A stretch of DNA of 64,000 nt from Bacilli bacterium (GTDB taxonomy: Bacteria; Bacillota_I; Bacilli_A; RFN20; CAG-288): contig CAAGLY010000013.1 in NCBI GenBank assembly GCA_900770925.1, forward strand, positions 182-64,181, written 5' to 3'. Within the stretch, counting starts at the first letter, position 1, and the number at the start of each line of letters is the position of its first letter. The position numbers and the translations under genes are program-made. Positions 1,943 through 58,308 of this stretch are shown in pieces. Below the pieces are notes generated by a model. It saw nothing but the letters and a program-made list of their open reading frames with translations, did not search any database and was not told the origin of the DNA.

Positions 1943-4597
1943 TTATTCCTTATGGCTTTCGTCGTTCTTTGTATCTGTTTCCGGAGAAACTTCCTTGGCC
2001 TCTTCAGCCTTAGGAGTTTCTTCCTTCTTTGCCGGAGCAAATTCCTTCTCTAAATGGTGGACGGTTTCATCATCAGTCGTGATGAGAAGAACCGGAACAC
2101 CGGCATAGGATTCAAGGTGAGTAGCAAAGGATTCCCTAGACCTAGAGACATTCCTTACTTTTCCGTAGTCAAGGAACAGCCTTCCGATATGGCTCGGATC
2201 AGCTGCGCCATGGACACAGGCTTCCTTGAACTCATTGTCGCCGATCGGGTTTCCATGCGCAGTGGCAATGACTAAGACTAAGCGGGAAGGATGTCCTTCT
2301 AAGACTTTATCGATACCGAGATAGTAATAGTTGAATCCTGGATAAAGAATGATGTCTTTCGGATTCTTCGGCTCTGCCTTGTCCTGCCTCTTATGCTCAT
2401 CGACAGGCGGGAGCTTACGGTTCTTCAGAAGGTAGTCGATTTGATCGGAAGTGATGGTTTCGTTCTTGATTAAGGTTTCGGCAATCAGTTCAACATCGGC
2501 ACGATGCTCTTCTAAGAGCTTGCGGCACTGTTCATGGCAGTCATTGATAATCTTGCGGACAGCCGTATCGATCTCAAAGGCAACCTGAGTGGAATAATGG
2601 GCACTGGAAGAAGTATAGTCACGTCCTAAGAAGACGCTTCCTTCCGGTTTCTCATACTGGATAGGACCTAAGTCGCTCCTTCCGTATTCGGTAACCATGC
2701 TACGGGCAATGTTGGTGGCGACCTCAATATCATTGGAAGCACCGGAAGAGACATCGCCAAAGAAGATTTCCTCGCTGGTCCGTCCGCCTAGGTAACCGGT
2801 GATACGGGCAAGCCTCTGGTTCTTTGTCCTGAGGAACCGGTCTTTTTCCGGTGTCCTTAAGACATGGCCGCCAGTACGTCCGCGGGGAACAATGGTAATC
2901 TTCTGGACCTTATCCGAATAAGGCAAGAAGATACCGACGACGGCATGGCCGGCCTCATGATAGGCGACCTGACGTTTTTCGGCCGGATCAAGATGAGATC
3001 TCTTCGCCGGACCGGCAATAGCACGGTCGATGGCCTCATCGATATCGGAAGTGGTGACGGCAGTACGGTTATTACGGACAGCTAAGATAGCGGCATCATT
3101 CCTGATGTTCGCTAAGTCAGCGCCGGAAAAGCCGACTGTACGGGTAGCAATCGAATCGAAGTTGACATCCGGAGCAATCTTCTTATTGCGGGAATGGACA
3201 CGGAGAATAGCGGCACGTCCTGCCTGATCAGGAAGGTCGACCGTAATCGTACGGTCGAAACGTCCCGGACGGGTAAGAGCAGGATCAAGGACATCGGCAC
3301 GGTTAGTAGCTGCGATGACAATGATTCCGGAGTTGTCTTCGAAACCATCCATTTCAACAAGCAATTCGTTTAAAGTCTGCTCGCGTTCATCGTTTCCGCC
3401 ACCCAAACCGGCACCGCGCTGACGGCCGACAGCATCGATTTCGTCGATGAAGATCAGGCACGGAGCATTGGCTTTCGCATTCTTGAATAAGGAACGGACA
3501 CGGCTGGCACCAACACCGACATACCTTTCCACGAAGTCAGAACCGGAGATGGAATAGAAAGGAACATTGGCCTCGCCGGCAACTGCCTTTGCTAATAAGG
3601 TCTTACCGGTTCCAGGCGGGCCGACTAAAAGGACACCATGAGGGAGCTTGGCTCCTAAACGGGTGTATTTATCGGCATTTTTGAAGTAATCGACTAATTC
3701 GACAAGTTCAGCTTTGGACTCATCGCATCCGGCAACATCGGAGAAGCGGACTTTGGATTTTGATGTCTTACGGGCAAGATTGTCGACAAATCCGCCCATC
3801 GGGTTTCCGCCCTGGCCAAGGCCTTTGCTCCTGCGGGAGAAAAGGAAGAAGAAGAGGGCACCGATTAAGACTAAATAGATAACCGGCCTGACCCAGGAGA
3901 GATTGCTTGTCTTCTCTAAGGAGTAGGAATAGGAAACGCCGGAATTGTAGTAATCGACATAAGCGCCGTTGTCGTTCTGGATCTTCACATAGTTGACAAT
4001 CGGCCTAACGTAATGTTCGAACTCTTTGGTGGTAATCTGAACAGTGAAAGAATAGCTTCCTTTCTTCGCAATAGAGAAAGAACCTTTCAGATAATACAGA
4101 TCAGACCTTTCATTGCTCTTGACGACAGAAAGGACAAGATTCTGGTAGTTAGAAGGATTCAGGAGAATTTTCGCTAATGCTCCTTCATTCTTAGTCACTT
4201 CGCCAAGAGTCTTGATATCTTCCTCCTGAGCAAGCTGCTGATAATTGGAAAAATCCGGATAGCCATTCGAATCGGTATCGATCTTGCCGTCTTTATTAAC
4301 ATCGACAGCATAGTAGATATCCTTATTCGTATAGCCTAAAGATGTCGACCGCCTCTTAAATCCGAAGAAATAGATCCTCCTAGAAACGATAGCAATGAAG
4401 ACAAGGGCAAGAACCACAATTCCGCCAAAGCCTTTCTTCTGCTTTGGGCCATTATTGCTGCCCTGTCCAAACGGATTTCTGTTATCGGGAGAATTCTTCT
4501 TCGGCGGCTGCTGATCATCATCCGAAAATTCCCTAAGGGTCTGTTCCTTTCCCATAAAGGAATAGGTCAGGTTTTCGACTTTTTCGGGTTTTGCCAT
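1943..4597 (-). CDS. ftsH: ATP-dependent zinc metalloprotease FtsH with long ectodomain and extra C-terminal domain
   Basis: 884 aa with Walker [17 protein letters not shown] region [19 protein letters not shown] and Zn site HEAGHA. It has two TM segments. SD TAGGAGGT lies 6 nt before the ATG. Confidence 0.93.
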
Positions 4598-5354: not shown

Positions 5355-6482
5355 CTATTGTTTGTTTTCCCGGCGTTCAATTCTCTTGATGAAGTAGAGG
5401 TTCAGGAAATAGAAGGCAACCAACAGCCCGGTGAAGAAAACAGGAAAGAAGATACAGGAGAAGACACCAACGCCGTTTCCGTCCCTTAGGATGACATCCA
5501 CGATGACTAAAGCGGTGAAGACACTGCGGAAAGTCATCAAAGTAATCCTAAAGGATTTTTCCTTTTTCCGGTTGCAGAGGAGGAAGAGAAGGATTCCGAT
5601 AATAAAAGTAACAACTCCGACAATAAAGGTAATCCAGGCAAAGACGCAGTCAATTGTCTCTGTATGGGAGAACCTATCCCATAAGGTTTCTACTCCTCTC
5701 CGGGTATAGAAGGAAGAAAGAGGAAAGACAATAAAGTATTCGATGCAGAAGAACAGAGGAAGGGAGAGCCTATATAGACAGGAAGAATGGCGGATATGAT
5801 CCTTGAAGCGAAGGAAGGCATTAGGATGGAGAGACCGGATTAGCCTGATAAAGGCAAAGAGGACACCGAAGATCGGAATCAGAACAAAGGGCAGAAGATG
5901 ATGGATATTGGAGAAGATACCTCCTGTGAAGCAGAAGATAATGTGGAACAGGGTCAGTCCTAATGTTCCGATCCTTAATAAAAGCTGATCAAGGGAATTT
6001 TTCCGGAAAGAAGGAAGAGAAACAGAGAGGACAGACGTAATCCTGATAAAGATGGTGAACAAAGATATCCTGACTAGGAAGAAGATTCCCCTTCCGGAAG
6101 AATTCCTGATCTGATAGGAGTTCTGTGTGTAAAGAACATCTTCGGTTACCCAGATGTTGATCTTGATGCTATAGAGAATAAGAAGGACAAAAGGATAGAC
6201 AAGATAGAACAGATTGACAAGCGGGAACTTTTCCTTCTCTGTTTTCTTAGGAGCAGGAATTATCTCGCTTTCGCTTTCTGTTTCTCTTCCTAAGAGATAA
6301 TCGGAAGTGACAGAGAAAATATCCGCCAGAATTAAAATATCCTCGACAGAAGGAGCACTCTTCCCGTCTTCCCAGTCAGAGATAGTCTTCTTGTCGACAC
6401 CTAATTTTTCCGCCAGTTCATCCTGGCTAAGCTTAGCATCTCTTCTAAGCCTATATATCCGGAATCCAATATCATTTACCAT
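5355..6482 (-). CDS. XRE-family HTH regulator fused to a multi-pass membrane domain
   Basis: The N-terminal region (RLRRDAKLSQDELAEKLGVDKKTISDWEDGKSAPSVEDILILADIF) is an HTH_3 domain, followed by about 7 hydrophobic segments. I place the start at the second ATG (6482) because GGTGAGGAAA lies 7 nt upstream. The ORF is open to 6503. Confidence 0.75.
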   Translation of the reverse strand: MVNDIGFRIYRLRRDAKLSQDELAEKLGVDKKTISDWEDGKSAPSVEDILILADIFSVTSDYLLGRETESESEIIPAPKKTEKEKFPLVNLFYLVYPFVLLILYSIKINIWVTEDVLYTQNSYQIRNSSGRGIFFLVRISLFTIFIRITSVLSVSLPSFRKNSLDQLLLRIGTLGLTLFHIIFCFTGGIFSNIHHLLPFVLIPIFGVLFAFIRLIRSLHPNAFLRFKDHIRHSSCLYRLSLPLFFCIEYFIVFPLSSFYTRRGVETLWDRFSHTETIDCVFAWITFIVGVVTFIIGILLFLLCNRKKEKSFRITLMTFRSVFTALVIVDVILRDGNGVGVFSCIFFPVFFTGLLVAFYFLNLYFIKRIERRENKQ

Positions 6483-6602
6483 TTCAGATTTCCTCACCAA
6501 CATTATAGCGGAAAGAAAGATGAAGGAGATAAAGATATTTTACAGAAAGAAAATAAAAGCAGAGAAAAGTTTGCTTGTCCTATAGTTTTATCTATAAACA
6601 CG

Positions 6603-6624
6603 AAAAAAACCCGATTTCTCGGGT
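6603..6624 (-). terminator. intrinsic terminator after tRNA-Ala
   Basis: Stem acccga (6609-6614) pairs with tcgggt (6619-6624). The A-run at 6603-6609 gives a U-tract on the minus strand. Confidence 0.6.
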
Positions 6625-6635
6625 TAAATTTCTAT

Positions 6636-6711
6636 TGGTGGAGCTGACGAGGATCGAACTCGCGACCTCCTCCATGCCATGGAGGCGCTCTCCCAGTTGA
6701 GCTACAGCCCC
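6636..6711 (-). tRNA. tRNA-Ala (anticodon GGC)
   Basis: The reverse complement folds as a cloverleaf. The acceptor GGGGCTG/CAGCTCC has G3:U70, the anticodon arm is CCTCC-ATGGCAT-GGAGG, the T-loop is TTCGATC, and CCA is encoded. Confidence 0.93.
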
Positions 6712-6739
6712 AATGATAGCCTTTTAACAGGCGAGGATA

Positions 6740-6768
6740 ATTCTAACCCCTTTTTATCACAGAGTCAA
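6740..6768 (-). promoter_or_regulatory. sigma-70 type promoter for tRNA-Ala
   Basis: On the minus strand: TTGACT (6768-6763), a 17-nt spacer, then TAGAAT (6745-6740), 28 nt before the tRNA 5' end. Confidence 0.6.
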
Positions 6769-6791
6769 CAGAAATCGATTTTTTTTGAAAA

Positions 6792-7502
6792 TCAGAGTTT
6801 AACAGACTTCTGGAACACCCGGTTAAGGATATCCTCACTGAACTCGTTGTTTTTCTCTTTCTCGGTATAATCGGGATCTTCTGCTTTTCTCAGCTCCTCC
6901 TGGAATACACAGGTCAGAACCTCGATGGAGTGATTAGAGACATTATCGTTATTGACGATCCTATCAGCATAATTGGAGCTAGGAGCAATGATTTCCGAAT
7001 ACATCGGAGCAACCGTATTGAGATACTGGGAGACAATGTTCTCATAGCTGCGTCCTCTCTCCTCGTGGTCACGGATAAAGCGGCGGAGGAAGCGGACTTC
7101 CGGAGAAGCCGTGATGAAAACAAGAAGATCTCCCCTAGAGCGGACTTCCTTATCGACAAGGGCCCTGATTCCTTCGATAACGACTAATTTGCGGGGTACA
7201 ATGGTCTCTGTTTCCTGCCTGCGGTTACGGACCTTGAAATCGTATTTCGGTTTCTGAATCGATTTTCCGTTCTTGAGATCAAGGATCTGCTTACGCCTAA
7301 GTTTCCAGTCGAAAGCCTTAGGATGGTCATAGTTGACCGCGTTGCGTTCTTCCCTAGTCCTATTGGACTGGTCACGGTAGTAATCATCCCTAGTAATATG
7401 GGTGACATTCTCCTCACCGACATTCTTGATGACGTTCTTGGCAACATAGCTCTTACCAGAAGAAGAGCCTCCGCCGATCAGGATGATTCTTGGCATATCC
7501 AT
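6792..7502 (-). CDS. udk: uridine kinase
   Basis: 236 aa with P-loop IGGGSSSGKS, then YDHPKAFDW and KPKYDF motifs of uridine/cytidine kinase. There is a C-terminal extension of about 30 aa. Confidence 0.85.
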   Translation of the reverse strand: MDMPRIILIGGGSSSGKSYVAKNVIKNVGEENVTHITRDDYYRDQSNRTREERNAVNYDHPKAFDWKLRRKQILDLKNGKSIQKPKYDFKVRNRRQETETIVPRKLVVIEGIRALVDKEVRSRGDLLVFITASPEVRFLRRFIRDHEERGRSYENIVSQYLNTVAPMYSEIIAPSSNYADRIVNNDNVSNHSIEVLTCVFQEELRKAEDPDYTEKEKNNEFSEDILNRVFQKSVKL

Positions 7503-47376: not shown

Positions 47377-48276
47377 ATGAATAGAATCCTGATTGACTTA
47401 ACGATATTAACCGATGATGAACAGAAAAAAGCCGGATACGGAATCAAGCTTTTCAAGCAGAAAAAAGAAAATACCGAACTTATCTTAGTTGGAAAAATAG
47501 ATAATCTTCTGACCTTAGATTCCTTCCAAGGAATAACGATAATTAACTATAAGGATAAAGAAGAAGCCTTAGAATTCTGCTTTGCCCAAGTCAAAGAGAA
47601 AAAGTGTGATGCCATCGTTTCTTTCCGTGACCGCTTAGAAATGGCAGCAGCTTCGAATAAGTTCCTTATTCAGAAAGAGCCGTCTCCTCTTTATGTCACT
47701 TCCTATGCAAATGCCTATACCGGAAAATGGACTCTGTTAGGGGATTTCGGCTATCAGACAAATCCAAGCGAGAGCGATTATCTGAACTACTTAACCGAAA
47801 GGAAGACTATTCTTCTTAAGTTCAACGGCAGGAAGAATCCCGTTGCCAGATTTCTCCTTCCATCGGGATTATCAAGGGATGAAAGCATCACTTCTGTAAT
47901 CCGTGAAAGGAAGAAAGATAAATCCTATAAAGGAGAAATCGAATCCCTTCATAGGCTAGAAGCCGATTCGGATATCCTTATCGGAAATCCGAATTTAGTC
48001 TGTGCAACGATTTCCGGCATCGAGCAAGGTATTACAATCTATAACGAATATCTTGAGCAGGGAAGGAATGCCTCTATCCAATATAAGATGGGAGGAGCTC
48101 TCATCAAGAAACTAAGACAGAAGTTTGAATCCTCAATCGATAAGAAGTTCACTTCCGGAGGAAGGCTGCTTTATGGGTTTGATAAACCGGTTGTCATTAT
48201 CCGAAAGGACACGGCTGCTGGCGGAATAAACGCCTGTCTGAACCTTGCGGATAATGCGGCAAATAGCCTGAAATAG
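47377..48276 (+). CDS. divergent PlsX-like (phosphate acyltransferase family) protein
   Basis: 299 aa. LLGDFGYQTNPSESDYLNYL aligns by eye with the PlsX motif llDvGAN.d..pe.L.qfa, and the C-terminus GGINACLNLADNA aligns with the PlsX C-terminal helix. The N-terminal AvDaMGGD motif is not conserved. Confidence 0.45.
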   Translation: MNRILIDLTILTDDEQKKAGYGIKLFKQKKENTELILVGKIDNLLTLDSFQGITIINYKDKEEALEFCFAQVKEKKCDAIVSFRDRLEMAAASNKFLIQKEPSPLYVTSYANAYTGKWTLLGDFGYQTNPSESDYLNYLTERKTILLKFNGRKNPVARFLLPSGLSRDESITSVIRERKKDKSYKGEIESLHRLEADSDILIGNPNLVCATISGIEQGITIYNEYLEQGRNASIQYKMGGALIKKLRQKFESSIDKKFTSGGRLLYGFDKPVVIIRKDTAAGGINACLNLADNAANSLK

Positions 48277-48278
48277 CC

Positions 48279-49037
48279 ATGAATATCCTAATCAAGCTTT
48301 CTGGCATTGAAAACAAAGAAGAACTGATTACAAGGATCAAGAAAGAAGCCTTAGACAGCTCTTCCTCTTTCGAATTCTATTTGGATTGTCCTTCTAGTGA
48401 ATTTACAAAATTCGAAGGGTTCGATAAAATCCATCGTTTTCAGAATGATGGGGTTGCTCTTTCTGCTGTTATCCAGAAAAAGGAAGAGACAGATGGCCCG
48501 ATTCTTTATCCTTTAAACAGTTTAAATGATAAGCCTTCCTATCTTTTTGTCCTCAATAAGGAGAACGATTCCGTTGCCGAAAAGAGGATTAGCACCTTTT
48601 ACTCTTTTGTCAAAGAAGATAGCCTCACTATATCTCTTTTCTCTAACAGCTTATTTAGTGAAGGGTATCCGATTAAGGAAAACTGGAATAAAGAATCCGT
48701 CACTGAGCTATTCACGAAAGAAAACTCCTTCTCCGTCTTAAGCCAGTACGATTTTCAGCTCCTCTCGGATGCTTTCCTTACCATTAAGGCATTCAAGAAG
48801 AAAGAAAAAGAGAGCAAGAAGACCCTATTTTCCGATGTCGGGAACTACTTCTTCAAGAACTACATGTCTCACCCTAAGGATCTGACAAGGGAATTAATGC
48901 TTTCTTCCTATGGTAGGACATGGAAGGAAGAGGTCCTTTATTTCCAGATAACAAAAAAAGGAACAAGGAAAGAGTATCTTTCCCTGTTCCGGCTTAGGAA
49001 ACTCTATCAGAAGAATCACTTAACAATCTTAAAATAA
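48279..49037 (+). CDS. hypothetical protein
   Basis: 252 aa, starting 3 nt after the PlsX-like gene. I recognise no motif. Confidence 0.5.
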   Translation: MNILIKLSGIENKEELITRIKKEALDSSSSFEFYLDCPSSEFTKFEGFDKIHRFQNDGVALSAVIQKKEETDGPILYPLNSLNDKPSYLFVLNKENDSVAEKRISTFYSFVKEDSLTISLFSNSLFSEGYPIKENWNKESVTELFTKENSFSVLSQYDFQLLSDAFLTIKAFKKKEKESKKTLFSDVGNYFFKNYMSHPKDLTRELMLSSYGRTWKEEVLYFQITKKGTRKEYLSLFRLRKLYQKNHLTILK

Positions 49038-49383: not shown

Positions 49384-51087
49384 TTACTTCTTCTTCAGGT
49401 ACTTGATGCAGTCAAGCGTGACGGCAGCAAGAATGATAACGCCCTTGATGGCGAGCTGGTAGTTTGCATCGGTGATACCAATCATCGGCAGAATGACGCA
49501 GATAGCCTGGAAGATGAGAGCGCCGATAACGACACCGGAGATCTTTCCGACACCGCCAGAGAAAGAGACACCGCCGACGACACAGGCTGCAATAGCATCG
49601 TTTTCCCTACCCTGACCTGTCCTTGCACGGACATTGCCGGAATAGATGGCGAAGATGCTACCGCCGATACCATAGTAGATACCGGCAAGAATGAAGACGC
49701 CTAATGTAACCTTGAAGACATTAATACCGGAGACGGCTGCTGCCTCCGGGTTACCACCGACAGCGAACCTGTTCTTACCGAATTTTGTCTTATTCCAGAT
49801 AACCCACCTGACGGCAATACCGATAATTGCCCAGAAAATCATAATCGGGAAATCGGTGCCGTCCCTAAGTCCTTTACCAGAGATAATAGCAGCGACCTTT
49901 TCATCCGGCCTTCCCGTGAATTGGTTGCTCGTCCTACCGGCCATGAGACCGAAGGTGAAGAGCTGAGTGGCAAGAGTAGAGATGAACGGATGCCTCTTGA
50001 ATTTAGCAGAGAAGAAGCCGGCTAAACCGGAAATTGCTGTACAGGAGGCGATGGAGAGAAGGAACGCAAAGACAACACGGAGGCCAAGAGGGATTCCAGA
50101 GACGTTAACGGCATGTCCGAAGAATCCTAACGCTGTCGTACCGCTTGTTGTAACAAGCCTGCCTGTAAATACGGCTGACCTACCGACTAGACGTCCGATG
50201 CTTAAGTCGGTACCGGCTAAGACAATCAAGCCGGCAACGCCGAGTGCTAAGAACCTACGTGGCGCAGTCGTGTTAAGGATAAGAATAAGGTTTGAACCAT
50301 TTAAGAGGAACTCGCCAGACTGGACTGCATAGACAATCGTTGCGATGATGATAAGAAGGAGGATAGTAAGGTATAGACCGTTTTTCAGAAGGAAGCCTTT
50401 GACCGTAAAGTTGTTGACGTAATTTTCTTTCTTCTGTTCTAACCTATAGAGAGGAGGAAGTTTTTTGTTATTGATCTTTTCCCTGTAAGAGAATTTATTG
50501 ACATAGAGAGTATGAACTCTATCCTGGCATTCATCCTTTACATCCTGAAAGGCAACATTCGCATCGTTGCATTTCTGGACATATTCGACCTTGAGATCAT
50601 CAAGTGCCCTCTTTTTCTGCTTATTGAATTCTTTTTCCTTGCCGGCCTCAGGTTTCTTGTTCGCCCATTCAGCTGTATAAGTTTTCCTCGCTTCTTCGTT
50701 ATCTTTCTTATACTGAGCAAGTTTTGTCTCTTTTTCTGCTAAAGCAGCTTTGATGATTCCTTCGTTCTTTGCTTTTTCCTGAGCAATAAGCTTGGAATAG
50801 CTTGCCTGAATGAAATCAATTGCCGCTTTGACCTTTTCGGCAATCTGCGGTTTCTTCTTTAAGCGGACAATATCCGCTTTCTTGATTTCTTCCTTGTCTT
50901 TAGCAATCAGCTTGTCTTTCGTCTCTTTATCAAGCTGTTTGTATTTCTTCAGATTAGCGATTTCGTTCTTCAGTTCCTCGATTTTGGTAACGCCATCCCG
51001 ACGAAGATCATCGAGTTCGGCCTGCCTTTTTTCGATTTCAGGAATGAAGGACTGTTCAGTCAGAACATTTGTATTAGTCGTATCCAT
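49384..51087 (-). CDS. mglC: CUT2-family sugar ABC transporter permease (MglC-like) with N-terminal coiled-coil extension of about 230 aa
   Basis: The C-terminal 340 aa or so are polytopic with BPD_transp_2-type motifs (GTDLSIG, GRENDAIAACVVGG). The N-terminus is K/E-rich and helical. A strong SD (AGAGGAGAA) precedes the ATG at 51087. Confidence 0.8.
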   Translation of the reverse strand: MDTTNTNVLTEQSFIPEIEKRQAELDDLRRDGVTKIEELKNEIANLKKYKQLDKETKDKLIAKDKEEIKKADIVRLKKKPQIAEKVKAAIDFIQASYSKLIAQEKAKNEGIIKAALAEKETKLAQYKKDNEEARKTYTAEWANKKPEAGKEKEFNKQKKRALDDLKVEYVQKCNDANVAFQDVKDECQDRVHTLYVNKFSYREKINNKKLPPLYRLEQKKENYVNNFTVKGFLLKNGLYLTILLLIIIATIVYAVQSGEFLLNGSNLILILNTTAPRRFLALGVAGLIVLAGTDLSIGRLVGRSAVFTGRLVTTSGTTALGFFGHAVNVSGIPLGLRVVFAFLLSIASCTAISGLAGFFSAKFKRHPFISTLATQLFTFGLMAGRTSNQFTGRPDEKVAAIISGKGLRDGTDFPIMIFWAIIGIAVRWVIWNKTKFGKNRFAVGGNPEAAAVSGINVFKVTLGVFILAGIYYGIGGSIFAIYSGNVRARTGQGRENDAIAACVVGGVSFSGGVGKISGVVIGALIFQAICVILPMIGITDANYQLAIKGVIILAAVTLDCIKYLKKK

Positions 51088-51104
51088 TTTCTAATTTCTC
51101 CTCT

Positions 51105-52598
51105 TTATAAGTACTTTGCAGAAAGTCTTAACAGCTCTTCCTGATTGGTTTCCTTCGTGTTGACAACACCGGCAAGATGATAGTTGCTCCTTACCGCGAT
51201 ACGGTTAGTGATTCCTAAGATTTCCGGCCTTTCAGAGCTGACCACGATACAGGTTTTGCCTTCCTTGGCAAGATTGATAATCAATTGATAGATTTCATAC
51301 TTAGCACCGACATCAATACCGCGGGTAGGCTCATCAAGAAGGAAGACATCCGGATTACGTTCAAGCCATTTTCCGATGATTACTTTCTGCTGGTTTCCGC
51401 CGCTAAGAGCGGAAATCAGATCATTCGGTCCCCTGCACTTGGTGTGCCTAGTGTAAATTTCACGGACCGTGGCTTCTTTCCTCTTTCCATCGTTAAGGAA
51501 ACCTAATGTCTTATACTTATCGAGATTTGTAATTGTCGTATTGAACGTCAGAGTTCCTTTCATGAACCTTCCGTTTGCTTTACGTTCCTCAGTGACAAAG
51601 GCGAAGTTATAATCCCTGGCTTCTTTCGGTGAACGGAATTTTACCTGTTTGCCGTTAAAGAAGATTTTTCCGGTCTTAATGGTACGGATACCGAAGAGAG
51701 TTTCCAGTAATTCGCTTCGGCCAGCACCGACAAGGCCATAAACACCGAAGATTTCACCTTTACGGACAGAAAAGGAAATATCACGGAGAAGAGGAGCATA
51801 CCTAGTAGAAAGATTCTCCACTCTCAGGATTTCCTCGCCTGGAGTATTGTCTACCGGCGGGAAACGCTGAGTCAGGGAACGGCCGACCATAGCAGAAATC
51901 AGTTCGTTCCTGTTGGTATCCTTTGTTGCTTTCGTCCTGATCCTTTCACCATCACGCAGAACAGAGACTTCATCGCATATTTCGAAGATTTCATCCATCT
52001 TATGGGAGATATAAACAAATGAAACACCCCGTTTGCGTAAGTCACTGACAATCTTGAAGAGCTTGCGGACTTCCGGTTCTGTCAAAGATGAGGTCGGTTC
52101 GTCTAAAACAATAATCTTTGCGTTATAGGACACAGCCTTAGCGATTTCCACCATCTGACGCTGAGAGACTGACCTCGTGCGCCTGCGCTGTTTAGGGTTG
52201 GCGTTGATTCCAAGGCTCTCGAAGAGACCTTTCGTTTCAAATAACCTGTAGTTTTCATCGACAAGTCCGCCACGGGTCTTGTAGCGTCCAAGCCACCTGT
52301 TATCCAGAACGGTCCTATCTAAGCACTGATTGAGCTCCTGGTGAACCATAGCAACACCGTTTTCAAGGGCATCTTTCGGATTTTCGAAATTGACGTTCTT
52401 GTCATCGAAAATAATACTTCCGTCGTCCTTTGCATAAATACCGAAGAGGCACTTCATCCTAGTGGACTTACCTGCTCCGTTTTCACCCATCAATCCCCTG
52501 ACTGTTCCACGCTTAACAGAAAGATTGATATTTTTAAGAACATGATTTTTTCCGAAAGATTTGCTTAAGTCATGGATTTCAAGTATGTTTTCTGTCAC
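51105..52598 (-). CDS. mglA: CUT2-family sugar ABC transporter ATPase (MglA-like, duplicated ABC domains)
   Basis: It has two ABC cassettes (GENGAGKST, LSVSQRQMVEIAKA, IIVLDEP; second LSGGNQQKVIIGKWL, VFLLDEPTRGID). The start is set at the GTG at 52598, 8 nt after AAGGAGG. Confidence 0.88.
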   Translation of the reverse strand: MTENILEIHDLSKSFGKNHVLKNINLSVKRGTVRGLMGENGAGKSTRMKCLFGIYAKDDGSIIFDDKNVNFENPKDALENGVAMVHQELNQCLDRTVLDNRWLGRYKTRGGLVDENYRLFETKGLFESLGINANPKQRRRTRSVSQRQMVEIAKAVSYNAKIIVLDEPTSSLTEPEVRKLFKIVSDLRKRGVSFVYISHKMDEIFEICDEVSVLRDGERIRTKATKDTNRNELISAMVGRSLTQRFPPVDNTPGEEILRVENLSTRYAPLLRDISFSVRKGEIFGVYGLVGAGRSELLETLFGIRTIKTGKIFFNGKQVKFRSPKEARDYNFAFVTEERKANGRFMKGTLTFNTTITNLDKYKTLGFLNDGKRKEATVREIYTRHTKCRGPNDLISALSGGNQQKVIIGKWLERNPDVFLLDEPTRGIDVGAKYEIYQLIINLAKEGKTCIVVSSERPEILGITNRIAVRSNYHLAGVVNTKETNQEELLRLSAKYL

Positions 52599-52626
52599 TC
52601 TTTCTTCCTCCTTCATCATTGAAGAA

Positions 52627-52654
52627 GGGATGCTATGAAGATTCATAGCATCCC
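52627..52654 (-). other. perfect 12-bp intercistronic hairpin between the binding-protein gene and mglA
   Basis: gggatgctatga (52627-52638) pairs with tcatagcatccc (52643-52654) around a 4-nt loop. No U-tract follows. Confidence 0.6.
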
Positions 52655-52677
52655 TCATTTTCTTGCTTATCGGCAGA

Positions 52678-53790
52678 CTACTTTTCTAATGCGTGATACC
52701 AATCCTTGATGATGTTACCCTGTGCAACACCCTGACCCTGAGAGCCAGAGCCGACAAAGTAGGCATTAGAAACGGAAGAGAGATCAGCAACACCGCTGTT
52801 ATCGGATTTCTTCGGCTGACGATTGAAGAAGACAACCGGTTTGCCAGCAGCTTTGTCGAGATAAGTCTTATAGTTAGCGTGAGTGATGATGTTGAAAGCG
52901 AAGGCATCGTAGTTGCCGCCGAGCTTGGCATCGACCTGTTCCTGGAGCTTAGTATCATCGGTACCTTCACCAGCGACAACAGTGACTTCGAAGCCTAATG
53001 CCTTAGCATAGTGCGGAAGAGCCTTTGCATAGGTTTCCTGGATAAAGTTATCGTTCTGAGAATAAAGAGCGACAAGTAATTTCTTTCCCTTGACTGCCGA
53101 ATCTTCAGCAACATTGACATAGTTACCCGGTTTTAAGGTGTCTGCATTCTGTTTAGTAACAGCAGCGAACTGAGTCTGGATAACATGGCTGTTTAATTCA
53201 TCGAGATTTAAGGAAGCACGTCCGCCATAGTTAGCAGAGATAACAGGGTTAGTTCCCTTGACCCTATTAGCTAAAACTAAGGCAGTAGCAAGAGCTTGAT
53301 CATCACCATTCTGGGAAACAGAACCGGCAAGCGTGCCCTTCTTGATCCTGTCGCAGGCAGTTCCAAGAGCATCAAAGCCGACAATCGGAGTGCCCTTTAA
53401 AAGACCAGTAGCGTTAGAAGCAGCGATAGCCATACCATCGTTGTTAGAGACGATGAAATCGAGCTTTCCTTTATACTTCTTAACCCAAGTCTCGACCTGG
53501 ACCTTAGCAAAAGCATCATTCCAGGAACCAGTGGTATCCGTGCAGGTAACACGGGTGAGTTCCTTAGCCTTGAATCCGCCTTCAGCAGCAATAGAATTTA
53601 AAGCATCAACACAGCCTTTGGTACGATCTTCGGCTTCCGGGTTTCCGTCTTCGCCGACAAGAATGGCATAACCGAGTTCGCCATCAGAGATAGCATTCTT
53701 CCAGGACCATTCCTTGGCAGTGGTCTTGTTGCATCCGACAGTAGCACCGGCTAATAAAACTAACGACAGGAACGAAACGAGCTTTTTCAT
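52678..53790 (-). CDS. sugar-binding lipoprotein of the MglB/type I PBP family, circularly permuted
   Basis: 370 aa with lipobox ATVGC and SD AAGGAGA. The motifs SNNDGMAIAA, IVGFDA and GTLAGSV (normally in the C-terminal half) come before LYSQNDNF, PVVFFNRQP and AYFVGSG (normally in the N-terminal half). Confidence 0.8.
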   Translation of the reverse strand: MKKLVSFLSLVLLAGATVGCNKTTAKEWSWKNAISDGELGYAILVGEDGNPEAEDRTKGCVDALNSIAAEGGFKAKELTRVTCTDTTGSWNDAFAKVQVETWVKKYKGKLDFIVSNNDGMAIAASNATGLLKGTPIVGFDALGTACDRIKKGTLAGSVSQNGDDQALATALVLANRVKGTNPVISANYGGRASLNLDELNSHVIQTQFAAVTKQNADTLKPGNYVNVAEDSAVKGKKLLVALYSQNDNFIQETYAKALPHYAKALGFEVTVVAGEGTDDTKLQEQVDAKLGGNYDAFAFNIITHANYKTYLDKAAGKPVVFFNRQPKKSDNSGVADLSSVSNAYFVGSGSQGQGVAQGNIIKDWYHALEK

Positions 53791-53845
53791 ATTTTTTCTC
53801 CTTTTTGTTTTTCCTCAAGGGGGCGTTCAATAAGACTGGCCATCC

Positions 53846-53874
53846 TTAAGCGCTTAAATTCTAAACCGCTTACA
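53846..53874. promoter_or_regulatory. cre/LacI-family-operator-like sites in the mgl promoter region
   Basis: There is a palindrome ttaagcgcttaa (53846-53857). Next to it, tctaaaccgcttaca (53860-53874) reads TGTAAGCGGTTTAGA on the minus strand, overlapping a TAGAAT -10 candidate. Confidence 0.35.
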
Positions 53875-54013
53875 TAAATTAAAAAATGGAAAAAACAACA
53901 CTGAAATTGAAAAAATCTACACACAAACAAACATTCAAAGACAAAAATTCCACTTTTTCTCTGTTTGCTTCTCTAACCTTATTAATAGGGAAAACTTGAA
54001 AATGAATCCCCTT

Positions 54014-55027
54014 TTACAAATTGCTCAGAATTTCCCCCTGAACATAAACCGTGTATTCGTTTGCCCTTGTCTCGGTAAAATCATCAGGAAGTGCCTTATT
54101 GTTGAGAAGGCAGTCAGCAATCTCAACGCAGGTCTTCGCCTGCTTTTTTTCTTCGTTTTTCACCGTTCCGGAAAGCAAACCTTTCTGCCTATACTGAATG
54201 CCGATATCCGTGCCATCGACACCGAAAACAGGGAAAGGAAGAGAGTCAGAGGGATCATCGGAAACAAGGTCGTTCTCAATCAGATAGTCGACCGCACCAA
54301 TTGCCCTATCATCATTGTTGGAAAGCACCAATTCAATCTTGTCTCCGAACTGCTCGTACCAGTCTTTCCTGATAACCTTTGCCTCATCGCGGCTCCAGTT
54401 GCAGTAACTAGAAGCAAGGATCTCGGTCTGATAGCCATCCGTTTTTAAGGTATTCAGTACCGAATTGCTTCTCTTCTCTGTATCCTGATTTCCGATTTCG
54501 CCCTTTAATAGGACAAGCTGAATCACACCGTCATGATTTTTATCGTATTCGGAAAACAGTCCGTCCTCTGTTTTAAAGAGGGTTTCTACCCTCTTTGCCT
54601 GGCTACTCCCCTCAAAGAGAGGATCCGTTCCGACAAAGAAGATATTCTTATTCGTCTTCCGTCCGCGGATCCTATCCGCATCAAGAGGCTGACGGTTAAA
54701 GAAAATAACCGGAATATCTTTTTTGGAGACTTTATCGATAATCGCGCCGGAAGAAAGCCGGTCGACAAGGTTGATGAACCTCCTCTTGCTGTTCCCGCTG
54801 TCCCTAGCATCCACAATCGATTCGTTCTGCTGAATCTGAGAATTCGAGGCGTACTTCACGCTATAGGAGTATCCTTTCCCATCTAATTCAGCCTGGAGCG
54901 CGTGGTTCAGAGACCTGATGAAGGTATCGTTCTCGTTATAGATGAAGACGGATGCCTCCGTCTTCTTCTCTCCGCACGAAACAAGAAGAAAGAGACAAGA
55001 TAAAAGTAAGTAGCTTCTATTCTTCAT
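54014..55027 (-). CDS. type I periplasmic-binding-protein lipoprotein (canonical MglB-like order), sensor partner of the adjacent kinase
   Basis: 337 aa with lipobox LVSCG. The motifs VFIYNENDTF, IPVIFFNRQP, FFVGTD, LSNNDDRAIGA, VFGVDG and GLLSGTV occur in the canonical order. Its start overlaps the kinase stop by 11 nt. Confidence 0.75.
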   Translation of the reverse strand: MKNRSYLLLSCLFLLVSCGEKKTEASVFIYNENDTFIRSLNHALQAELDGKGYSYSVKYASNSQIQQNESIVDARDSGNSKRRFINLVDRLSSGAIIDKVSKKDIPVIFFNRQPLDADRIRGRKTNKNIFFVGTDPLFEGSSQAKRVETLFKTEDGLFSEYDKNHDGVIQLVLLKGEIGNQDTEKRSNSVLNTLKTDGYQTEILASSYCNWSRDEAKVIRKDWYEQFGDKIELVLSNNDDRAIGAVDYLIENDLVSDDPSDSLPFPVFGVDGTDIGIQYRQKGLLSGTVKNEEKKQAKTCVEIADCLLNNKALPDDFTETRANEYTVYVQGEILSNL

Positions 55028-56741
55028 TGTCTTTCACCTCCGAAAGCGGAATATTTATTTCAATCCTCGTTCCGTCATCGGGTGAGGATTCAATCTTGAT
55101 GTCTGCTTTTTCTCCGTAATAAATGCGTAAACGCTGATAGACATTCGAGATTCCTACTCCGTTATGGATGTTCTTATCCTTCCTGGATTTCTTGATCTCT
55201 TCCAGCTTCTCCGGAAGGATTCCGCATCCATTGTCCTTAATGGTGAACTTAAGGAAACCTTCCTGGGTATATCCTTTGATGAAAATCCTGGCCTTATGGT
55301 CTGTCGTCTCCCCAAAACCATGGACGATGGCGTTCTCGACAATCGGCTGAAGAATCAGCTTGATAATCGGAAGGTTCCTGATTTTATCCTCAGCATCAAT
55401 CTCAAAGCCGAACGTCTCTCCAAAGCGCATCTTCTGAATCTGAAGATAGTATTTGACATGGCTTAGTTCATCCTTGACCGGAATGATATTCTTTCCCCGG
55501 GAGATTGAGATGCGGAAGAAACGGGAGAGAGCCACAATCCTATTCTGTGCCTTCTCCTTTTCGTCTTCATCAATCAGATAGATGATAGAATCAAGGGTGT
55601 TATAGAGGAAATGCGGATTAATCTGATTCTGTAAAGCTCTTAATTCCGCTTTATTCCTTTCTTTCTGTTCTTCTAGAATCTCCGTTGCCAGGTTATGGAT
55701 TTTATTCCTCCTCTTTTCAAAGGAACGGTTAAGAGACTCGATTTCCTTAGTTCCCTTCTTATCAAAGCTGCTCTGAATCTGGAAATCGAGGTTCTCAACG
55801 TTTTCCCTCTCTTTCTGAAGACGGACAAGAGGAGTGGAAATCTGCGTAGAGACCAAGAAAAAGATGAAGAGGAAGACAAGTAAGATAACCAAAGAATAAA
55901 TACCGCAGTTAATCAGGAACGTTTTCTTTGTTTCATATAGTTCATTTATGTTTGTTTTTATAGCAACTCTCCATCTTGTCTTTGGAATGGTTGAAATAAA
56001 AAGAAAGAAGGAGTCTCTGCTTTCTTCATATGACGTGCTTCCGATAACTGTATCGGAGATTATCTTCTTTTCCTTATCCGTGACCGTCCCCGAGCAATAG
56101 ACAAGCCGGCCGTCATTATCGTAAATATAGACATGTCCGCCTTTTCCAAGGCGGGTCTCATCAATGATAGAGGCAATCGAGTCGAACTGATAGACAATAT
56201 GGATAACGGCAACGTTCTTGCCGTTATCGTATTCAAAATATTTTGAAACATTGAACAGAGATGCCGAATCCACACGGGAAAAGACATTTAAGGAAGGAGT
56301 AGTAAAAGAAGCGATGAACCAGTTTTCCAGTCTTACTTCCTCCTTGCTTTTTTCGTTTTTGAAGTTGCTGGATGAGGCAATCAGATTACCCTGTTCATCA
56401 AAAAGAGAAAGAGAGCTGATAGAAGGCGTGATGATACGGATTTCATCAAAGAAATTATCCGCTGTTTCCGTGATGGTTTCCTCTGTTTCATTCACTAGGC
56501 GTTTCTGAATGGCATCAGAGGCATTGACGACTTCACTGATATAGTTAGAATAATTCGAGATTGCCTGTTCTGAGGTAGAAACAACCTGTTCCCTGTAGGT
56601 GTTCTCCACATTACCGGAATAGGTGAAGGTAACAATCCTGAACCTTCCGGCAATTAAAAAGAGAAAGCTGATAACAAAGACAGTAAATAGCTCCGTCTTT
56701 AAAGACAGACGGCTATGAAAGCTTCTTTTTCCGGTAGTCAT
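55017..56741 (-). CDS. sensor histidine kinase (YesM/LytS-type His_kinase plus HATPase_c) with extracellular sensor domain
   Basis: It has two TM helices flanking an ectodomain of about 270 aa, then LQNQINPHFLYNTLDSI (the His box of the His_kinase family), and ENAIVHG and DNGCGI (N and G boxes). The start is set at the ATG at 56741 (MTTGKRSF), overlapping the regulator gene by 29 nt. Confidence 0.8.
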   Translation of the reverse strand: MTTGKRSFHSRLSLKTELFTVFVISFLFLIAGRFRIVTFTYSGNVENTYREQVVSTSEQAISNYSNYISEVVNASDAIQKRLVNETEETITETADNFFDEIRIITPSISSLSLFDEQGNLIASSSNFKNEKSKEEVRLENWFIASFTTPSLNVFSRVDSASLFNVSKYFEYDNGKNVAVIHIVYQFDSIASIIDETRLGKGGHVYIYDNDGRLVYCSGTVTDKEKKIISDTVIGSTSYEESRDSFFLFISTIPKTRWRVAIKTNINELYETKKTFLINCGIYSLVILLVFLFIFFLVSTQISTPLVRLQKERENVENLDFQIQSSFDKKGTKEIESLNRSFEKRRNKIHNLATEILEEQKERNKAELRALQNQINPHFLYNTLDSIIYLIDEDEKEKAQNRIVALSRFFRISISRGKNIIPVKDELSHVKYYLQIQKMRFGETFGFEIDAEDKIRNLPIIKLILQPIVENAIVHGFGETTDHKARIFIKGYTQEGFLKFTIKDNGCGILPEKLEEIKKSRKDKNIHNGVGISNVYQRLRIYYGEKADIKIESSPDDGTRIEINIPLSEVKDNEE

Positions 56742-58308
56742 CCGGTGACCTTCCCGTGTACTTCTTAAAACAGTGCGAGAAATAATAAGGATCCGCATAG
56801 CCGACGTCTCTCGCAATGGTGATAATCCGGTTATTCGCATTCGAAAGCAGATCAAGCGCCTTCTTCCTTCTAAGTTCCGTCATCCTCTTAGTGAATGATT
56901 TTCCGTTTTTCTTTAGAATAGCGGAAATGTAACTAACAGAATAAGCAAGCTCATTAGCAACATCATCAATAGACAGACCAGGATTCGTGAAGTTTGCTTC
57001 TAAGAATTTCTGTATCCGTTCATAGGAGGATTCAAGTCCGGAAAGACGCTTGGATTCATTGACTTTGATTACCCGCTCTGCAATCTGATAATAGTACTCA
57101 ATTAACGAAGTGGGCGTCTTTATCCGATAGAGAGTGTCCCTGATTTCAATATGAGAGTCGAATCCTAGGTAGAAATCATTGAGGGAGATACAGGCTTTGA
57201 GGAGAGCATCAAGAATGTTCGAGAGAATGTAGTTATAGTTTTCCTTATACTGGGGGGTAGAAATCTGTAGGATCAGCTTCTTGATTTTCTCTTCTGCCTC
57301 TTCCTTCTTCCCGTAAGAGAGAAAGTAAGTAAGGTTACGGTATTCGTTCTCATCGACCTTGCCGCTGTTCCCGCTATCATTCTCCTCTTTCTCTAAGTCC
57401 GCAAAAGAAAAGACCATGTTCTGTCCTAAGACAGTCCGGTATTCAAGAGAACGTTTGGCATGGCGGAACAGTTTCCGGTAGTTAATCGGTTTTTCCCTGA
57501 TATCGCTGACACCGCAGGAGATTGAGATATTTCCTCCGCGTTTCACCCTAGCTAAGATACTATTCAGAGATAGAATCAGCTCTTCGCCATTCACCTTCTT
57601 ATCACTTTCTAAGAGAAGGACAAACTGGTTATCGTTCAGGAACTGATAATAGGTAAACCGTCCGTCTCCGAATTCCTTATCGATATTCTTCTTCAGGAAG
57701 AAGTAGAAAAGATCCTGCTGTTCGAATCCAAGGTCCTCCTTATCGGAATCAAAGACAATAATCCTCTGATACTCGTGATTAAGATCAATTCCGTCCTCAA
57801 CAAGTTTTCCGTTGAAGTTATCACTGATTTCCTTCACTTTAATCAGAAGATTCAGATCTTCAGACTGAAGGAAGCGAACAGAGTCCCTTGCTTTCTGTTC
57901 CAGATTCTTCCTGTTCCTATCCTTGTGATACTGATTATCGAGAATTTCCTTTGCTTTATTCAGCGTAGAAAGAAGCTCATCCTTAAACACCGGCTTAGTC
58001 AGATAGCCGACCACTCCCAAGGAAATGGCTTCCTTAGCATAGTCAAAGGAATCATATCCGGAAACAATGATGGACTGAATCAGAGGAAGTTCCCTTTTGA
58101 AGTGCTTGATCAGATCAATTCCATCGACATACGGCATGCGGATATCCGTGATCAGGATATCCGGAGCCAAAGAGATTCCGTTCTCCGATGCATCGTATCC
58201 ATTCTCAAAACAGCCAACGACCTCAAACTGGTCGCTGAGCTTAGTCAGAATCGATTTCAATCGGCTTCGGACAGACTCTTCGTCATCCGCAATAATTACC
58301 CGGTACAT
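56713..58308 (-). CDS. response regulator with AraC-type HTH output (YesN-like)
   Basis: 531 aa with a receiver domain (VIIADDE, DILITDIRMP, TKP) and a C-terminal HTH_18/AraC domain (GYADPYYFSHCFKKYTGRSPDDYR). Confidence 0.85.
   Translation of the reverse strand: MYRVIIADDEESVRSRLKSILTKLSDQFEVVGCFENGYDASENGISLAPDILITDIRMPYVDGIDLIKHFKRELPLIQSIIVSGYDSFDYAKEAISLGVVGYLTKPVFKDELLSTLNKAKEILDNQYHKDRNRKNLEQKARDSVRFLQSEDLNLLIKVKEISDNFNGKLVEDGIDLNHEYQRIIVFDSDKEDLGFEQQDLFYFFLKKNIDKEFGDGRFTYYQFLNDNQFVLLLESDKKVNGEELILSLNSILARVKRGGNISISCGVSDIREKPINYRKLFRHAKRSLEYRTVLGQNMVFSFADLEKEENDSGNSGKVDENEYRNLTYFLSYGKKEEAEEKIKKLILQISTPQYKENYNYILSNILDALLKACISLNDFYLGFDSHIEIRDTLYRIKTPTSLIEYYYQIAERVIKVNESKRLSGLESSYERIQKFLEANFTNPGLSIDDVANELAYSVSYISAILKKNGKSFTKRMTELRRKKALDLLSNANNRIITIARDVGYADPYYFSHCFKKYTGRSPDDYRKKKLS

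Follow-up and report, generated by a model that had tools for sequence, protein, structure and literature searches.

The lipoprotein MglB-2 of Treponema pallidum (TpMglB-2, Tp0684; PDB 5JX2) has a topology described as unusual and circularly permuted (Brautigam et al. 2016, PMC4990184). The strands of its N-terminal lobe (N-lobe) are ordered 5-4-6-1-2-3, a fourth hinge/connection is present in addition, and the name “Type Ic / Cluster Bc” was proposed for proteins of this kind. It binds glucose, is assigned to its own ATP-binding cassette (ABC) transporter, and homologs were noted in treponemes and Gram-positive gut bacteria (PMC4990184). The subject here is a protein of 370 amino acids (aa), called A, which is encoded on the minus strand at 52678-53790 of a 64,000-nucleotide (nt) stretch of DNA from a Bacilli bacterium (contig CAAGLY010000013.1), the whole of which is referred to as the window. 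As a preliminary description of the sequence had proposed, A has the MglB/type I binding-protein fold in a natural, intact, circularly permuted form. With a probability of roughly 85%, it serves the MglA/MglC-type (CUT2) importer encoded next to it as a lipid-anchored hexose receptor, and is a second variant of Type Ic.

The permutation is visible when A is compared with its paralog B, which is encoded directly upstream. There are only two significant BLASTP matches between them, and both are out of order: A240-365 matches B27-151 (E 7e-11) and A36-166 matches B166-297 (E 2e-10). The two-block inversion is unchanged with AGG-corrected sequences (see below), and the best match among 500 shuffles of B reached 25.8 bits, against the 49-54 bits observed. 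The same inversion is found against the real MglB of E. coli K-12 (EcMglB), again as two swapped BLASTP matches, A25-215 with EcMglB 147-325 (E 7e-20) and A237-364 with EcMglB 27-150 (E 2e-16), while B is colinear with EcMglB (B8-315 to 11-303, E 5e-44). The Pfam profile Peripla_BP_4 matches B once and colinearly but A in two stretches (E 9e-31; the score of 107.7 bits clears the cut-off of 35.1), the best of which places A39-180 on profile positions 122-257. A is thus a member of the family by profile, but its chain is not colinear with canonical MglB. The parts of A are as follows.

52678-53790, minus strand: gene of protein A, a circularly permuted MglB-type sugar-binding lipoprotein of 370 aa plus stop, with the chain order old C-terminal half, linker, old N-terminal half (swapped BLASTP matches, Pfam, AlphaFold model)
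53798-53803, minus strand: Shine-Dalgarno sequence AAGGAG, 7 nt 5' of the ATG of A (read from the sequence)
53731-53790, minus strand: lipoprotein signal peptide of A, aa 1-20, MKKLVSFLSLVLLAGATVGC, ending ATVGC (sequence, alignment)
53146-53709, minus strand: A aa 28-215, equivalent to EcMglB precursor 147-325, comprising the degenerate calcium loop, the strands and helices of the C-terminal lobe (C-lobe) and the old C-terminal region, with the motifs GYAILVGEDGNPEAEDRT, SNNDGMA, IVGFDA and GSVSQ (BLASTP, residue map, tblastn)
53083-53145, minus strand: linker, A aa 216-236, leading from the old C-terminus to the old N-terminus (gap between the two EcMglB matches)
52882-53082, minus strand: block N1, A aa 237-303, the old N-terminus and N-lobe strands 1-3, with the motifs LLVALYSQNDNF, EVTVVAG and AFAFNII (PF18610, Peripla_BP_7, at A236-303; strands of the AlphaFold model)
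52681-52881, minus strand: block N2, A aa 304-370, N-lobe strands 4-5 and the last helix, with the motifs PVVFFNRQP and AYFVGS and the final helix QGNIIKDWYHALEK (phmmer, alignment to the homolog P0051, segment mapping of 120 homologs)

The details of the preliminary description hold up well. All 14 of its 14 quoted peptide strings were located in A and B within one residue of the positions given, the linker lies at about A216-236, and the new termini fall just before the equivalent of the calcium loop, between the counterparts of HWAANQG and WDLNKDG in EcMglB. The open reading frame (ORF) is intact, with a lipobox signal peptide and a Shine-Dalgarno sequence; Cys20 is invariant in 50 homologs and is the presumed lipidated residue. 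By tblastn, each segment is single-copy within the gene of A and has no stray copy upstream. A “KEWSW”/“KDWY” echo at the two ends of A was considered as a possible duplication and ruled out, as its two members correspond to adjoining stretches of EcMglB (HWAANQG followed by WDLNKDG). An origin of the permuted chain by fusion of two neighboring genes, one B-type and one A-type, finds no support either, since neither half of A is closer to B than the other (∼27% identity for each).

A two-lobed fold, as had been expected, is predicted for A by a confident AlphaFold (AF2) model based on 50 homologs, with a predicted local distance difference test score (pLDDT) of 90.6 and a predicted template-modeling score of 0.86. 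The alignment lacked Met1, and residue i of the model is residue i+1 of A. Only the signal peptide (model residues 1-20) falls below a pLDDT of 50. In model numbering, the strands and helices of the C-lobe (37-158) are followed by a long helix (161-177), two short strands (202-210), a linker without regular secondary structure (219-235), five strand-helix units with strands at 236-241, 267-272, 295-298, 318-321 and 342-347, and a final helix (352-366). This is the expected order of C-part, linker, N-lobe strands 1-5 and helix, in an alternating strand-helix pattern, and all top Foldseek matches are sugar-binding proteins. Among PDB entries 5JX2 comes first (E 3.5e-18, template-modeling score 0.61-0.63, ∼325 aligned columns). 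Canonical glucose/galactose-binding proteins (GGBPs) align over only ∼190 columns, as is expected of a sequential aligner such as Foldseek faced with a permuted chain; these column counts serve as a proxy for a permutation-aware superposition. With hinge 1 of GGBP at residues 109-111, directly after AYYVG, where we take it to be, there would be four inter-lobe crossings in A, as in TpMglB-2.

The preliminary description knew of no natural circular permutant in this family. That part does not stand, given TpMglB-2 (published in 2016, PMC4990184) and PF18610, which already models the relocated piece. TpMglB-2 is also the best sequence match of A in the PDB (5JX2, E 2e-35; also 6BGC and 6BGD). 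The two proteins are nevertheless cut at different places. By phmmer they match in two inverted stretches, A34-313 with Tp82-384 and A304-366 with Tp9-73. The VFFNRQP/YFVG block of ∼65 residues stands near the C-terminus of A (A317-348) but at about chain residues 15-60 of 5JX2. If the chain of A is divided into blocks C (aa 35-215), N1 (aa 236-303) and N2 (aa 304-370), A reads C>N1>N2, and proteins of the TpMglB-2 type read N2>C>N1. The first stretch runs straight through the linker, which is the counterpart of the fourth hinge/connection of TpMglB-2, and this shared fusion of the old termini indicates common ancestry. A is thus a second topological variant of the Type Ic subfamily, with the same fusion of the termini and another cut site, before the calcium loop. 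Homologs of TpMglB-2 were originally chosen because their “N-termini matched well” (PMC4990184), a selection that would exclude proteins of the A order.

Both cut sites occur among close relatives. The homolog P0051 is 60% identical to A yet has the TpMglB-2 order, and it is found on two contigs in an operon of binding protein, ATPase and permease. Residues A315-367 match P0051 32-84 with 70% identity. In Foldseek the AF2 model of P0051 (pLDDT 76) covers ∼395 columns of 5JX2 and ∼253 of the GGBPs; this contrast in coverage with A is what two cut sites predict.

The sugar-uptake locus extends from 49384 to 58308 on the minus strand (ORF list and Pfam), and its genes are arranged in the order response regulator, histidine kinase, B, A, ATPase, permease. 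Besides A it contains the following.

56713-58308, minus strand: AraC-type response regulator (Pfam)
55017-56855 (ORF as listed), minus strand: histidine kinase with dCache_1, His_kinase and HATPase_c (Pfam)
54014-55027, minus strand: protein B, a canonical-order MglB-like lipoprotein of 337 aa (colinearity with EcMglB, Pfam)
51105-52658, minus strand: MglA-like ATPase of 517 aa with two ABC cassettes (Pfam ABC_tran in two stretches; aligned to E. coli MglA)
49384-51087, minus strand: MglC-like permease of 567 aa, BPD_transp_2 at aa 268-555 (Pfam, sequence)

The two-cassette ATPase and the BPD_transp_2 permease are encoded immediately downstream of A on the same strand, and the gene of A ends 19 nt upstream of that of the ATPase. 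The ten hexose-binding residues of EcMglB are D14, F16, N91, H152, D154, R158, W183, N211, D236 and N256 (PMC4990184). Their equivalents in A are D247, F249, N323, N50, E52, R56, W90, N117, D140 and Q160. Seven of the ten are identical to EcMglB and Q160 is as in TpMglB-2, a pattern that appears compatible with hexose binding. The ligand would most likely be glucose, galactose or a similar hexose, in keeping with the galK-like and galT-like ORFs beside the operon. Beyond Cys20 the chain begins with what is left of the calcium loop, followed by the first strand of the C-lobe, passes through the old C-terminus, the ∼21-residue linker (aa 216-236) and the old N-terminus to N-lobe strands 1-5 in order, and closes with the helix that precedes the calcium loop in canonical MglB. 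The gene of B overlaps that of the histidine kinase at its end; B probably senses sugar as the partner of this kinase, and together with the AraC-type regulator it would induce the operon. Three-component sugar sensors are the model for this trio, and the overlap of the genes suggests a role of B in sensing rather than in transport.

The permutation in A is one of several in the family. A profile search of 1.84 billion representatives, followed by domain mapping and sequence inspection, gave a family of about 3,100 representatives, of which the best 150 were examined. Cut sites were mapped by coordinate-based rotation; a doubled-sequence search with an A-order profile lost most of the canonical, linker-less proteins. 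Six chain orders occur among 135 representatives. Beyond the canonical and TpMglB-2 orders there are at least four more, that of A included, and all are intact lipoproteins. Those other than the A order, together with a tandem form, are:

Cut just before the GTVSQN strand: P0125 (two samples, plus the locus L083, with a six-gene layout like that of the window) and P0137 (two samples)
Cut before VFGVDA: P0169, EcMglB-like with an unrelated linker (two samples)
Cut after the first strand-helix unit of the C-lobe: P0153 (18 contigs, with ATPase and permease) and P0161 (5 contigs)
Full tandem fusion N1N2C-N1N2C: P0143, L091:256-2271, a lipoprotein of 671 aa (one 4.2-kb contig only, hence weak)

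P0143 has two complete canonical MglB units head to tail, which is the kind of intermediate that a duplication model needs. No protein of the order N2-C-N1-N2 was found by domain mapping among 378 sequences, and no duplicated vestige of N2 downstream of the stop codon of P0051 or of P0125, upstream of A, or elsewhere in the window. The origin of the variant would lie in duplication, fusion and truncation, followed by shifts of the termini.

For a tree of the 135 representatives, sequences were rotated to a common start and joined by neighbor-joining (301 columns, 100 bootstraps). A permuted superclade of 40 A-order, 16 TpMglB-2-order and 2 GTVSQN-cut sequences stands apart from the canonical ones (bootstrap 99), which fits a single original fusion. 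By Fitch parsimony the termini changed no fewer than 12 times on this tree, and close pairs of 54-63% identity have different termini. P0051 is nested in an otherwise all-A clade that includes A itself (n=16, bootstrap 100); its identity to A-order proteins is 61-63%, compared with only 34% to any other protein of the TpMglB-2 order, and its position indicates that termini moved after the fusion. P0141 (TpMglB-2 order, two samples) likewise falls inside another all-A clade (bootstrap 100), and P0123 (at least 24 contigs) and P0062, both of A order, lie among TpMglB-2-order sequences. Outside the superclade, P0169 pairs with canonical P0170 (bootstrap 100, 63% identity) and P0161 with canonical P0162 (bootstrap 100), while P0201, of A order, shares a canonical-derived clade with P0161 and P0153. 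The parsimony root of the superclade has the A order, so that this order, and not the crystallized one of TpMglB-2, may tentatively be regarded as ancestral there. On balance the evidence favors, with fair but limited confidence, the view that circular permutation has a natural hot spot in the MglB-type sugar-binding lipoproteins, with at least four extra orders, at least 12 switches and perhaps an ancestral A order.

Among the 120 best homologs the A order occurs in 65 and the TpMglB-2 order in 54. A survey of relatives in contigs from one genome per species (best 80 of 517 stretches) found it in 54 of 80 species-representative loci, so that it is indeed clade-wide. Its hosts are uncultured gut Bacilli/“Mollicutes” known from metagenome-assembled genomes (MAGs), Candidatus Enteromonas and Anaeroplasmataceae. 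The other 26 loci have the TpMglB-2 order and belong to Treponema (T. socranskii and T. saccharophilum among them) and a few Bacillota. An apparent A order in those two Treponema species, read from tblastn ranges of “35-363”, was discarded: domain mapping with hidden Markov models shows the TpMglB-2 order, tblastn having joined out-of-order pieces. In ∼30 A-order loci a canonical paralog is encoded directly upstream of the permuted gene, as in the window, and L083 repeats the whole series of response regulator, histidine kinase, canonical and permuted binding proteins, ATPase and permease.

Some relatives carry further peculiarities. Treponema socranskii ATCC 35535 (L048) has two paralogs of TpMglB-2 order (3211-4410 and 5902-7104), ∼1.5 kb apart. 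The metagenomic P0121 (759 aa) has an A-order domain closely related to A, with an extension of ∼410 aa between lipobox and domain that contains repeated “GENGNWWIGE/DTG” motifs. A subclade of the A order (P0135, P0139, P0140, P0142, P0144, P0148, P0151 and P0156; 483-608 aa) has an insertion of ∼100 residues or more at the junction of C-part and N1, in or near the linker. Five MAGs with the Bacilli-type operon (L010, L034, L038, L021 and L039) are labeled Alistipes onderdonkii, Bacteroidaceae, Escherichia coli, Oscillospiraceae or Lachnospiraceae, labels that probably reflect errors of binning or naming.

That TpMglB-2 is the best PDB match of A both by sequence and by fold, and that Peripla_BP_7 matches A, would fit an ordinary TpMglB-2 topology with the chain order of the crystal structure. 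This is nonetheless highly improbable. The two inverted phmmer stretches, the distant positions of the VFFNRQP/YFVG block, the different order of the three blocks and the lower Foldseek coverage of 5JX2 by A than by P0051 all stand against it; no second N2 block exists upstream of A in the window, and the order in the sequence already refutes the reading. An artefact of assembly or gene calling, such as a chimeric contig or a mis-joined tandem pair, deserves thought for a window that apparently comes from a MAG of an uncultured organism, but is barely conceivable here. L003 (“uncultured Mollicutes bacterium UMGS1247”), an independent MAG, has a 99%-identical gene with the same neighbors, the sequence cluster at 100% identity to A has 77 members, the order persists in more than 100 diverged homologs of 29-86% identity, every one of them equipped with a lipoprotein signal peptide, and the GC profile across the gene is unremarkable. 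The earlier judgment that A is not an artefact is thereby upheld.

The orders of A and TpMglB-2 could also have arisen by convergence, through independent fusions of canonical MglB genes. Permutation from canonical ancestors does occur independently, as the sister pairs P0169/P0170 and P0161/P0162 and the A order of P0201 within a canonical-derived clade illustrate. For A and TpMglB-2 themselves it is unlikely, as they are colinear through the linker, all A, TpMglB-2 and GTVSQN-cut orders except P0201 form the one clade apart from the canonical proteins, and P0051 lies inside an A-order clade. A role of A as sensor or decoy, with canonical B serving the transporter, gains some plausibility from the two binding proteins encoded side by side and from the diverged calcium site and two sugar ligands of A, but is quite unlikely: A has its own Shine-Dalgarno sequence and directly precedes the ATPase gene while B overlaps the kinase gene, the loci L001, L087 and L096 have no canonical paralog and still encode a permuted binding protein with ATPase and permease, and TpMglB-2 is a glucose-binding protein assigned to a transporter (PMC4990184). 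The preferred reading, a permuted hexose receptor for the adjacent importer, has points against it as well. The two-lobed fold of A is predicted rather than solved, and its final helix would pack on the C-lobe, given the domain boundary assumed for GGBP. At two sugar contacts (H152 to N50, D154 to E52) A differs from both EcMglB and TpMglB-2. Its calcium ligands are mostly lost: D134, N136, D138, Q140, Q142 and E205 of EcMglB correspond to S29, K31, D36, E38, G40 and D111, of which only D36 is identical and D111 a conservative replacement. The neighbor-joining tree, built on 301 columns, has some weak inner nodes (bootstrap 59 for the mostly-TpMglB-2 clade), which makes the direction of change tentative. 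A search of open-access full text found no description of the A cut site or of multiple switching, the TpMglB-2 paper being the only one that it brought up on other cut sites or multiple permutation in binding proteins.

The codon AGG is apparently read as methionine in this window. Such a reassignment is known in Candidatus Enterosoma, which belongs to family CAG-288 (PMC13092985). At aa 148 of A (53347-53349) AGG stands between ACD and IKKG where homologs have ACDMIK, and at aa 241 of B it stands between SNNDD and A. In the MglA-like ATPase AGG aligns with Met 7 times, Leu 3, Ile 2 and Arg 1 of E. coli MglA, while CGN and AGA codons align mostly with Arg. Per 1000 codons the window has 8.7 ATG and 23.3 AGG. 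No tRNA with the anticodon CCU was found in the window by tRNA scan. Translations with table 11 therefore show spurious Arg: the peptides quoted in the preliminary description are correctly placed, but some of their Arg residues are really Met, “ACDRIKKG” being ACDMIKKG and “SNNDDRAIGA” being SNNDDMAIGA. Two residues of A are altered (148 and 176, the latter codon at 53263-53265) and ten of B, and the permutation is unaffected. Expressed in E. coli without recoding, A would carry Arg at positions 148 and 176.

Several other features of the locus may be recorded. The kinase ORF as listed overlaps the regulator ORF by 143 nt, and its listed TTG start is therefore probably too far upstream. The permease has a charged, Lys/Glu-rich N-terminal extension of ∼265 residues (aa 1-265) with no Pfam match, and the permeases beside permuted binding proteins in L001, L083, L087 and L096 are likewise long (545-614 aa). 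ORFs named galK-like and galT-like from their sequences adjoin the operon on the opposite strand. Two adjacent ORFs on the plus strand, 47377-48276 (299 aa) and 48279-49037 (252 aa), have no Pfam match. Rfam and tRNA scans of the window gave only four tRNAs, none bearing on the permutation.

For A itself the result is modest, since natural permutation in MglB has been known since 2016 and A adds a second cut-site variant. The pattern across the family carries more weight. Several independent cut sites, repeated switching among close relatives and one possible tandem-fusion intermediate are unusually direct natural evidence for how permutation proceeds, and they reveal the positions at which the type I binding-protein fold accepts new termini. 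This matters for protein-evolution models that invoke duplication as the route to permutation, and for engineered glucose sensors based on GGBP, whether permuted or split. If the hot-spot view is true, the family offers a natural series for how binding-protein folds tolerate and acquire new termini. All permuted forms inspected are lipoproteins, and so are the nearest canonical relatives (P0152, P0162 and P0170), which bears on the published idea that links permutation to lipid tethering.

Among the known systems, the sensor-associated binding proteins, such as that of XylFII-LytS (PDB 5XSJ), are the likely counterpart of B rather than of A, the role of B being judged from its gene context. 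B is a paralog of A in the same operon and Pfam family, and both are lipoproteins, but the order of B is canonical. GGBP (MglB of E. coli and Salmonella; 2FVY, 2GBP, 1GCA; Peripla_BP_4) shares with A the family, the predicted two-lobed fold, 29-33% identity per half, seven of ten sugar ligands and the type of ABC partner. It differs in having neither swapped halves, nor the 21-residue linker, nor a degenerate calcium site, and GGBP is a soluble periplasmic protein whereas A is predicted to be lipid-anchored. TpMglB-2 is the closest described system. Like A it is a lipoprotein with the old termini fused via a homologous linker and Peripla_BP_7 region, it keeps most sugar-binding residues, including Gln at EcMglB N256, and its operon also encodes a permease and an MglA-like ATPase. 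Identity between the two is ∼27-34%; A lacks most of the calcium ligands, and Asn and Glu replace His89 and Asp91 of TpMglB-2. The chain of TpMglB-2 begins ahead of N-lobe strand 4 (VFFNRQP) and finishes behind strand 3. That of A runs instead from the remnant of the calcium loop and the first strand of the C-lobe to the helix that follows strand 5, and as a result of this cut site N-lobe strands 1-5 are contiguous in A, unlike in TpMglB-2.

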